A DNA stretch of 32,000 bases from NCBI GenBank assembly GCA_030167145.1, contig CP126532.1:4560001-4592000 (forward strand). Direction: 5' to 3'. Every line of letters starts with the position of its first letter. The first letter of the stretch is position 1. The stretch comes from Ktedonobacterales bacterium (GTDB lineage: Bacteria > Chloroflexota > Ktedonobacteria > Ktedonobacterales > JADMIN01). Positions 23,223 to 24,562 of this stretch are shown here, in pieces. The notes under the pieces were generated by a model. It saw nothing but the letters and a program-made list of their open reading frames with translations, had not been told where the DNA came from and made no database searches. The translations under genes were made by a program, and so were the position numbers.

Positions 23223-23461
23223 ATCACGTTGCTAGCACGGCTTGCGGGTTCTCCAGGCCCGCAATGTGTACGCATTCGCATCCGTCATAGGTCGCGTTGT
23301 TCTCGGGGTAGCTGCGCCATGCCATTGCCATGGCCCAAAGCGGCGCGATAGGGGCGGAGATAAGCGAGAGGAGTGCGCGTCTGGCGCATACCATGAGGCG
23401 TGCCCCCCTGTGGGAGATGCATGCACCAGGCGCGGATTGCCGTGTGTGGGCGCCACCAGCC

Positions 23462-23529
23462 GGAAGATAAGAAAAAGAATGCCCGGTTGGCAGGCCCTCA
23501 CAACCGAGTCGTGAACCTACCATCCGGGC
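23462..23529 (-). terminator. intrinsic terminator, expression platform of the ykkC-like element
   Basis: Minus strand: GCCCGGAUGGUAGG (23529-23516) pairs with CCUGCCAACCGGGC (23494-23481), with one A.A mismatch and one G.U pair. An inner UCAC/GUGA helix is present. AUUCUUUUUCUUAUCUU (23480-23464) follows. The 5' arm overlaps the conserved aptamer block AAAAGCCCGG. Confidence 0.7.
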
Positions 23530-23716
23530 TTTTGTCCCCGTGGTGTAACGCTCGCGCCGCCGCGATACTACGCCCAACCGTGCGTCAGACGATTTATCAA
23601 GCGGAGCCAGAGCGCCTGCGTCGCTCGGTCCTGGCCCTCCCAGCATGTACCCCCGCGTGCTACTATATCAGCGCACGCCCTGCTGGAGTATGCCGGAGGC
23701 GGAACCCTAGACGCAC
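23516..23716 (-). ncRNA. ykkC-class (guanidine-I family) riboswitch-like aptamer, variant with expanded helices
   Basis: Minus-strand blocks occur in the canonical order. (1) GCGUC-UAGGGUUCCG (23714-23700), an exact CUAGGGUUCCG. (2) GGACCGAGCG-ACGC (23631-23618), versus consensus GGUCCGAGAG. (3) ACACCACGGGGACAAAAGCCCGGAUGG (23546-23520), versus ACACGGnGGGAnAAAAGCCCGGGAGA. The flanks GCGUC and GACGC form P1. Long hairpins are inserted at the P1b and P2 positions. Confidence 0.7.
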
Positions 23717-23836
23717 TTCAGCTCGTAGTCGGGCAATTTACGGTCGCCTGGTAGAAACATCCGGGCCATATCCCCGGACCTATACGAGTGCCGTTCGCGA
23801 ACGAACATACAAACATCCGAACATACGAACACCCGT

Positions 23837-23866
23837 ACTCTACCATTCACACAAGATACCCGTCAA
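23837..23866 (-). promoter_or_regulatory. candidate promoter for the riboswitch/permease transcript
   Basis: Minus strand: TTGACG (23866-23861), 18-nt spacer ending in TGg (extended -10), TAGAGT (23842-23837). Confidence 0.45.
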
Positions 23867-23896
23867 GGCTTGCCCGTTTTGGGGGAGGGACCACGC

Positions 23897-24403
23897 ATGG
23901 TTACGGTTGGCATCCTCACCATCAGCACCAAAGGCGCAGCCGGCCAGCGCGAAGACACCTCCGGCGACGCCATCCGCGAACTCGTGACCGCTCCGCCGCT
24001 CGCGGCGGTCATCCATGAGCGCGCTATCGTCCCCGACGACCGCGCCGCCATTGAAGCCACCCTGCGCCACTGGTCCGATGACCTGCGGCTCAATCTCGTG
24101 CTTACCACCGGCGGCACCGGCCTCAGCCCGACCGACATCACCCCCGAAGCGACACTTGCCGTCGTCGAGCGGCTCGTGCCAGGGCTGGCCGAAGCGATGC
24201 GTCTGGAAAGCCTGCGCCACACGCCGATGGCTATGCTCACCCGCGCCGTCGCGGGCTGCCGTGGCGCGACACTCATCATCAACCTGCCCGGAAGCCCTAA
24301 AGGCGTGCGCGAGTGCCTCGGCGCGATTCTGCCCGCCCTGCCCCATGCCGTAGACATCCTCACCGCCCGCGTAACCGACCATGGCCAGCCGCCGCATGCC
24401 TGA
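23897..24403 (+). CDS. mogA: MogA/MoaB-family molybdenum cofactor biosynthesis protein
   Basis: Trimmed to ATG 23897 (MVTVGILTISTKG...), with GGGGGAGGGA upstream. Motifs: LVLTTGGTGLSPTD and INLPGSPKG. Confidence 0.85.
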   Translation: MVTVGILTISTKGAAGQREDTSGDAIRELVTAPPLAAVIHERAIVPDDRAAIEATLRHWSDDLRLNLVLTTGGTGLSPTDITPEATLAVVERLVPGLAEAMRLESLRHTPMAMLTRAVAGCRGATLIINLPGSPKGVRECLGAILPALPHAVDILTARVTDHGQPPHA

Positions 24404-24562
24404 GTCACGCGCAATTCGGCACGCGCCTTGCGGCTGGGCAATCACCGCAAGCGTGCCATTAAGCCGCCATGCATGTGGCGAGATGGGCATGATATTCGCT
24501 GTTAAGATAGAAACATGGCAACACGTAGCGCACTACCTAGTCGAGACCGGAGGATGGACACG

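Follow-up and report, generated by a model that had tools for sequence, protein, structure and literature searches.

Tandem guanine-PRPP riboswitches, in which a guanine aptamer precedes an aptamer for 5-phosphoribosyl-1-pyrophosphate (PRPP), were described by Sherlock et al. (2018, eLife 7:e33908, PMC5912903), with a distribution restricted to Firmicutes. The P1 stems of the published tandems lie 5-7 nt apart, cytosine deaminase (codA) is a common gene association of the PRPP aptamer (ykkC subtype 2b), and the tandem was validated on Bacillus megaterium codA, for which IMPLY behaviour was shown experimentally (PMC5912903). Position 49 of the ykkC fold is a pyrimidine (C49) in subtype 2b and in subtype 2a, the guanosine tetraphosphate (ppGpp) riboswitch, but a conserved A in guanidine-I, and sorting on this position alone separates gene contexts; at position 96, >97% of PRPP aptamers have a G, which ppGpp aptamers lack, and a G96A change shifts specificity ~40,000-fold (PMC6031431). 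We analysed a 32,000-nt stretch of a Ktedonobacterales genome (contig CP126532.1, positions 4,560,001 to 4,592,000; hereafter the window), in which a preliminary description had flagged a minus-strand RNA as a ykkC-like element with a deviant core. We conclude that the 5' leader of a permease and cytosine deaminase operon in the window is very probably a tandem guanine-PRPP riboswitch with a single common terminator. The flagged RNA is the PRPP-sensing half of this already described two-sensor riboswitch and does not represent a new kind of sensor.

The minus-strand RNA has the ykkC fold and belongs to subtype 2, which does not sense guanidine; it has an additional closing helix (P0) and is coupled to an intrinsic terminator, presumably as an ON element. 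Reading along this strand, a guanine aptamer is followed by a 6-nt gap between guanine P1 and PRPP P1 (23721-23716), the subtype 2b aptamer and the terminator (Table 1). The preliminary description had placed the element boundary at 23760 and missed the upstream guanine aptamer; its start lies near 23788 or, if counted from the promoter-like site, at 23866-23837. That site is the one found in a promoter consensus scan (0.2 expected in shuffles) and is a consensus match and nothing beyond that. The computations demonstrate membership of the class in both sequence and structure, along with conservation, covariation, the competing helices and the gene context; ligand binding and the switching outcome would follow those of the published class, from which they are carried over by analogy.

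The B. megaterium codA tandem (PMC5912903) is matched in its aptamer order, its 6-nt gap, its PRPP blocks and tails, its use of one terminator with the PRPP aptamer 3' strand as 5' arm, its overlap of P0 with guanine P1 and its downstream cytosine deaminase. The window differs from it in a P1b of 69 nt and a P2 of 68 nt, which bring the aptamer to ~217 nt, in a G+C content of ~63%, in the absence of purine 101, in an NCS1 permease ahead of the deaminase, and in a long structured 5' untranslated region past the terminator. The host also differs from that of the published class, being Chloroflexota and Ktedonobacteria-like where the published set comprises Firmicutes only.

The sole Rfam match at gathering score across the window is the Purine aptamer (RF00167; 23807-23706, minus strand), whose 74.5 bits far exceed the threshold of 37. 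A sensitive Rfam scan aligned the whole Guanidine-I model (RF00442) to 23721-23519, where two inserts measure 54 and 56 nt, at 46.3 bits (E 3.4e-7), under its gathering score of 63; the same scan found no other Rfam family that fits the ykkC-like part. A compact, canonical tandem from a metagenome (L050, 5101-5300) scores 83 bits with Purine and likewise stays below 63 with Guanidine-I (57.1 bits), so a sub-threshold RF00442 score is expected for subtype 2b in Rfam 15. No PRPP-specific or other ykkC subtype 2 family appears in Rfam 15, L050 included, and because RF00442 stays sub-threshold as well, standard annotation labels such leaders as plain purine riboswitches. A covariance model, R1, was built from 17 tandem PRPP aptamers from Firmicutes, taken with their published helices from supplementary file 3 of PMC5912903. 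R1 has a single match in the window (23719-23503), which covers the full model at 60.4 bits with a roughly calibrated E of ~1e-14; its scores at other loci range from 40 to 108 bits. The ykkC assignment of the preliminary description falls short of the gathering score when RF00442 is used and fits when the PRPP-derived model is used. The resemblance to ykkC RNAs that it had noticed goes beyond chance, given the full-length RF00442 alignment, the R1 score and blocks that are invariant in 7 related genomes.

The ykkC fold is present in full, with P1, P1a/P1b, P2 and P3 and the blocks CUAGGGUUCC, GnCCRAGYG, ACACC and GGGAnAAAARCCC. The three hallmark blocks are where they had been reported, namely CUAGGGUUCCG at 23710-23700, GGACCGAGCG at 23631-23622 and ACACCACGGGGACAAAAGCCCGG at 23546-23524. 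The P1 flanks GCGUC/GACGC were also recognised correctly; the full P1, UGCGUC (23715-23710) with GACGCA (23622-23617), is one pair longer. The minimum-free-energy fold of 23795-23464 (-143.8 kcal/mol, z = -2.5) recovers P1, the three-segment P1b hairpin, the long P2 hairpin and the terminator, and so bears out the earlier account of P1b and of the terminator arms (23529-23516 and 23494-23481) with their U-rich tract. The ~75-nt branched insert proposed for P2 is replaced in the folds by a single unbranched hairpin of 68 nt.

All residues named as contacting PRPP or metals are present: A5, G6, G48, C49, C77, C78, G96 and A103-G105. Beyond the pair listed in Table 1, C77 and C78 fall at 23543 and 23542, G96 at 23524 and A103-G105 at 23518-23516, and the tails are GAAG (23719-23716) and UAGG (23519-23516). 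The C at 23623, which lies within GAGCG and is invariant in relatives, is the subtype 2 marker; guanidine-I would have an A (A46) there and does not require the tails, which are conserved in the window. The G at 23524 (GCCC-G-G-A) is invariant in all relatives and marks the aptamer as 2b and not 2a, as do downstream genes for a permease and a cytosine deaminase in place of amino-acid genes; the 2a/2b call is made on G96, architecture and gene context. Compared with the T. mathranii PRPP aptamer (PDB 6CK5, PMC6031431), the window shares every contact residue and helices P0, P1, P1a, P2 and P3, and differs in lacking A101, in a small internal loop within P0 and in much longer peripheral helices.

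The published tandem consensus reads GnCCRAGYGRURCRR ... YACACC-R-R-AGGGAYAAAARCCCRGRnGGRnAGGUUYCRCUY (PMC5912903), and the window reads GACCGAGCGACGCAG ... UACACC-A-C-GGGGACAAAAGCCCGGAUGG-UAGGUUCAC. The window departs from the consensus in three places only: a pyrimidine at the second R, GGGGA for AGGGA, and the loss of purine 101. The second R is C in the window and U in three relatives (L002, L006 and L011), while GGGGA is found in 3 published sequences and the 101 deletion in one. Set against this consensus, the core positions that had been described as deviant correspond, on sequence, to the published PRPP (subtype 2b) signature. The A-to-C change in GAGAG is the published subtype 2 marker, the pyrimidine at 49 (PMC6031431); the 3' tail GGAUGG agrees with RGRnGG in the published consensus of 2b (tail RGRnGG-(R)nAGG); and the U-to-A change in GGUCC gives GGACC at a variable position of the consensus GnCC.

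The upstream guanine aptamer is of the ordinary kind, with U22, U47, U51 and C74 (xpt numbering) all canonical. The junctions UAUA, GUUUCUAC and GACUAC are canonical in length and identity, with no insertion in J2-3 or J3-1. Xanthine-II and guanine-II variants require junction insertions or U51G (PMC9295807); these defining changes are absent from the window aptamer, which is of the guanine-I type. In two relatives, L010 (2457-2558) and L011 (2367-2468), the guanine aptamer has C22/G52 instead of U22/A52, with U51 and C74 unchanged, a compensatory change in the tertiary Watson-Crick pair of the binding core.

Table 1. Coordinates of the leader elements and the genes behind them, in window positions.
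Feature	Position	Strand	Basis
Promoter-like site: TTGACG, 18-nt spacer, TAGAGT, TG ahead of the -10 hexamer	23837..23866	minus	consensus scan
Guanine aptamer: P1 5' strand CUCGUA (23788-23783), P1 3' strand UACGAG (23727-23722)	23722..23788	minus	RF00167
P0 5' strand CGAG-C-UGAA, CGAGCUGAA	23717..23725	minus	duplex prediction, -7.3 kcal/mol
PRPP-type (ykkC subtype 2b) aptamer: linker GAAG, P1, P1a, P1b, P2, P3, 3' tail	23503..23719	minus	R1
Expanded P1b hairpin, three helical segments, 69 nt between P1a strands	23634..23700	minus	minimum-free-energy folds
GGACCGAGCG block; G48 = 23624, C49 = 23623	23622..23631	minus	invariant in relatives
Expanded P2, 68-nt unbranched imperfect hairpin, longest P2 sampled	23548..23615	minus	minimum-free-energy folds
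P3 and binding-pocket strand UACACC-AC-GGGGACAAAAGCCC-GGA-UGG-UAGG	23516..23547	minus	R1 alignment; contact residues from PMC6031431
P0 3' strand UUCA-CGA-CUCG, UUCACGACUCG	23505..23515	minus	folds, relatives
Intrinsic terminator: 5' arm GCCCGGAUGGUAGG (23529-23516), 3' arm CCUGCCAACCGGGC (23494-23481), U-rich tract (23480-23464)	23464..23529	minus	
First gene: NCS1-family nucleobase (cytosine/purine) permease, 491 aa	21723..23198	minus	PF02133, E 2e-33
Second gene: yeast FCY1-type (CDA-fold) cytosine deaminase, 174 aa	21159..21683	minus	PDB 1ysb and others

Relatives of the permease were drawn from a species-representative genome set, which yielded 13 orthologous permease loci, almost all from Ktedonobacterales or Chloroflexia metagenome-assembled genomes (MAGs) and with 63-72% identity. 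A Purine match lies upstream of the permease in 7 of the 13, and all 7 carry the 2b blocks in register, without variation in the conserved blocks. An exact-pattern scan with ACACCNNGGGGAN{1,2}AAAAGCCCGGANGG collected 47 metagenome contigs, every one of which is matched by R1 (47/47), with a purine aptamer directly upstream in 37. The pocket nucleotides are all invariant in the window and ~50 distinct relatives while the helices take compensatory changes, which indicates that both fold and pocket are under selection. In the alignment of 50 distinct sequences, pairing holds in 95% of the cells of the five core helices and two-sided changes occur in 12 of 20 pairs, with slid-partner controls at 25-46%; the alignment was fitted to the model and hence leans towards the modelled structure. 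All 6 basal P2 pairs show compensatory changes among relatives. The conservation and covariation that the preliminary description had looked to homologous loci for are present, with blocks kept, helices covarying, and P1b and P2 behaving as variable hairpins.

The long P1b and P2 are peripheral extensions of variable length that leave the core unaltered. In the 50 distinct relatives P1b spans 14-103 nt and P2 10-68 nt, almost always as one stable hairpin each, and the aptamer as a whole measures 106-226 nt (217 nt in the window); six other loci, with four distinct sequences, have aptamers as long as that of the window or longer. Long inserts in both helices, some >100 nt, already occur in the published tandem alignment (PMC5912903), and the expansion is therefore no departure from the class, as had been supposed.

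Duplex prediction recovers P0 in almost every relative, and its strands change in a compensatory manner. The proposal of an additional closing helix typical of subtype 2 is upheld in that such a helix exists, but its strands had been misplaced: P0 is formed by 23725-23717 with 23515-23505, and the pairing of CUACCA with UGGUAG was rejected, CUACCA (23754-23749) being part of GUUUCUACCAGG, the J2/3-P3 stretch of the guanine aptamer. The outer half of P0 covaries with the 3' strand of guanine P1 (CGAG/CUCG, CGG/CCG, GAGGAAA/UUUCUUC), and the same joint change is visible in published rows (GAAUGAAA/UUUCAUUC and GGGGAAAA/UUUUCUCU). Because the CGAG of P0 doubles as the 3' half of guanine P1, the two helices are mutually exclusive, as proposed for the T. 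mathranii tandem (Knappenberger et al., PMC6031431). The terminator 5' arm is made up of the P3 3' strand, the S-turn and the ligand-contacting UAGG tail, so the PRPP-bound aptamer and the terminator are likewise mutually exclusive. The leader accordingly holds three mutually exclusive helices, guanine P1, P0 with P3, and the terminator, with a single terminator (23529-23464) for both aptamers. Its arms covary in relatives (GGUAGG/CCUACC, GGCAGG/CCUGCC) where the window has G-U pairs, and its U-rich tract reads AUUCUUUUUCUUAUCUU. A consensus scan picked up only the distal part of the terminator; the whole of it appears in the minimum-free-energy fold.

These competing helices suggest how the leader may switch. 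The fold with guanine P1 and the terminator (-143.8 kcal/mol) is ~11 kcal/mol more stable than one with P0 and P3 enforced (-132.8 kcal/mol), a gap to be closed by bound ligand, by tertiary contacts and by the kinetics of co-transcriptional folding. Bound PRPP would lock P3 and P0, and the locked helices would sequester the terminator 5' arm and remove 4 of the 6 base pairs of guanine P1, so that high PRPP should give read-through despite guanine. With guanine bound and PRPP low, guanine P1 would form and P0 would be lost; the 3' strand of the PRPP aptamer could then pair with the downstream arm, and transcription would stop. The predicted output is OFF for one combination only, high guanine with low PRPP, which makes it an IMPLY gate as in the published class. 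Such logic would suit the genes behind it: cytosine would be imported and deaminated to uracil, whose use as uridine monophosphate needs PRPP, and importing cytosine would be pointless while purine salvage drains PRPP.

The first gene encodes a permease whose match to the NCBIfam ncs1 subfamily is below cut-off; its orthologues (63-72% identity) sit behind the same type of riboswitch. The second gene product aligns nearly full length with yeast cytosine deaminase structures (E 2.5e-45), conserves the zinc and catalytic motifs HAE and PCDMC together with GHN and the C-terminal W..EDIG, and has counterparts of 80-86% identity behind the permease in 12 related loci. This deaminase is of the CDA-fold FCY1 type, which is distinct from the codA type. 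Of the gene associations looked for with 2b, de novo purine synthesis genes or cytosine deaminase, the latter is present, and domain annotation (Pfam, NCBIfam) revealed no guanidine-related genes near the element. Elsewhere in the clade the aptamers also precede NCS2-family (Xan_ur) permeases, a PNP-family phosphorylase, PurC, PurL, an NMT1-like protein and a histidine-phosphatase-family protein. Three metagenome loci have gene contexts beyond the published associations: the high-GC PRPP-type aptamers L052 (8475-8583) and L027 (33-147) lie upstream of His_Phos_1 proteins, with no guanine aptamer detected, and the tandem L021 (2553-2702) precedes an NMT1/THI5-like protein. A 216-aa open reading frame on the minus strand (23840-24490) has no Pfam or NCBIfam match, and its end at 23840 falls inside the promoter-like site.

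The preliminary description had favoured an uncharacterised ykkC variant, in which the core changes and the extra helix would redirect binding to a ligand that is none of guanidine, PRPP, ppGpp and nucleoside diphosphates. The RF00442 score below the gathering threshold would fit such a variant, as would an aptamer of ~200 nt instead of ~100, a missing purine 101, GGGGA in place of the commoner AGGGA, and a clade in a phylum where the class is unreported. Yet every supposedly deviant position agrees with the published 2b consensus, the compact canonical-looking L050 fails the same threshold, the long inserts, GGGGA and the 101 deletion all occur in the published alignment, and the closing helix first proposed borrows a strand of the guanine aptamer. 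With that guanine aptamer upstream, and with the architecture and gene theme of the codA leader on which the class was validated, the element belongs to the tandem guanine-PRPP riboswitches already described (PMC5912903), and we consider a variant of this sort very unlikely. It is also highly improbable that the guanine aptamer works alone and that the ykkC-like part is a decayed relic serving as spacer or antiterminator of an ordinary guanine OFF switch. Decay does occur in the clade, since a Ktedonobacterales MAG (L001, 2740-2866, JANWHL010000093.1) carries a degraded copy ahead of a permease ortholog (70% identity), with P1, P1a and P1b recognisable (R1 23.5 bits), the ACACC...AAAAGCCC P3 part lost and no Purine match at gathering score; several orthologous permeases (L004, L008, L009 and L012) have no riboswitch, and large inserts might suggest relaxed constraint. 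Against this, the pocket is invariant and helix changes are compensatory in the window and its ~50 distinct relatives, and the inserts remain stable single hairpins.

A ppGpp (2a) or guanidine-I (subtype 1) riboswitch behind the guanine riboswitch would share the same overall fold, and RF00442 is the sole Rfam family that aligns. Guanidine-I (RF00442) has the blocks CUAGGGUUCCG, CCGAG and AAAAGCCC in common with the window, which differs in a pocket C (23623) where A is expected, in conserved tails that form P0, in scoring 46.3 against 63 bits and in lacking a guanidine gene context. The ppGpp riboswitch (PMC6003355) shares a pyrimidine at 49, conserved tails and ON-switch logic, and its consensus is very similar to that of 2b. 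The window, however, keeps G96 (23524), as do all its relatives, whereas ppGpp aptamers are without G at this position; it is moreover fused to a guanine aptamer with a common platform and controls nucleobase salvage, not amino-acid metabolism. Either assignment is extremely improbable.

Several observations weigh against the tandem guanine-PRPP riboswitch preferred here. Purine 101, a weakly conserved position that touches the alpha-phosphate in the crystal structure, is missing here and from most of the clade; P0 of the window is interrupted by a 1x3 internal loop; the U tract is broken up (AUUCUUUUUCUU); and the start codon lies ~265 nt behind the terminator, beyond a spacer that has more conserved structure. 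R1 was built from 17 of the 127 published sequences, transcribed by hand, and its short calibration leaves the E-values rough. A sub-group of relatives (L005, L006, L007, L010, L011 and L015) has an alternative hairpin, CUCGGCC.../...GGCCG, and two of its members (L006 and L015) show no clear U tract, so the read-out across the clade may not be purely intrinsic termination.

The spacer behind the terminator, in which the sensitive Rfam scan found no match, has conserved features of its own. Directly 3' of the U tract, a conserved box CCGGCUGGUGG (23463-23453, minus strand) resembles the terminator 5' arm and is complementary to the 3' arm; the duplex of 23453-23463 with 23482-23494 is predicted at -15.8 kcal/mol (z -2.3) and would place the U tract in its loop. 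Complementarity of the box with z < -2 and compensatory changes is seen in 18 of 43 distinct relatives (e.g., L028, L031 and L038). This pairing can form in read-through RNA only and cannot influence the termination decision. A second conserved stretch (23373-23433) comprises CGCCUGGUG ... AUCCUC/GGAGGA (UCUCCC/GGGGGG in the window), 8-9 nt, and AUGG ... CCAG, and places a Shine-Dalgarno-like sequence and an AUG within a predicted, weakly supported hairpin (RNAalifold -9.7 kcal/mol, little covariation). This hairpin cannot affect the termination decision either and, together with the box, might act on read-through transcripts. A small upstream open reading frame from the conserved AUG (23394-23224, 56 aa) was considered and probably encodes no protein, its length (41-107 aa) and sequence being unconserved. 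The lost purine 101, the long P1b and P2 extensions conserved in the clade, the box and the hairpin could together point to a change in the preferred ligand or to a third control layer that acts after termination, which we regard as unlikely. If present, such a layer would act on translation or stability of the read-through mRNA, and the leader would then be more than a transcriptional gate with two inputs.

Ktedonobacterales and Chloroflexia genomes, like soil metagenomes, commonly carry tandem guanine-PRPP riboswitches, although the class was described as confined to Firmicutes (PMC5912903). A search of the available literature for PRPP riboswitches in Chloroflexi or Ktedonobacter found none, and the published alignments contain no accession prefix of Ktedonobacter or Thermogemmatispora. 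The novelty is limited to the phylum of the host, two long peripheral helices occurring in one aptamer, an NCS1 permease paired with an FCY1-type deaminase, and a second aptamer that Rfam misses. For annotation, the tempting misreading of a deviant ykkC core is corrected, the core being that of the PRPP subtype. The way in which the class is understood to work is unchanged by the window element. The genes behind the tandems of this clade are for the most part those of nucleobase permeases and of an FCY1-type cytosine deaminase, and the known theme, in which purine represses cytosine salvage and PRPP overrides that repression, would thus extend to this phylum with a deaminase of the CDA-fold FCY1 type.

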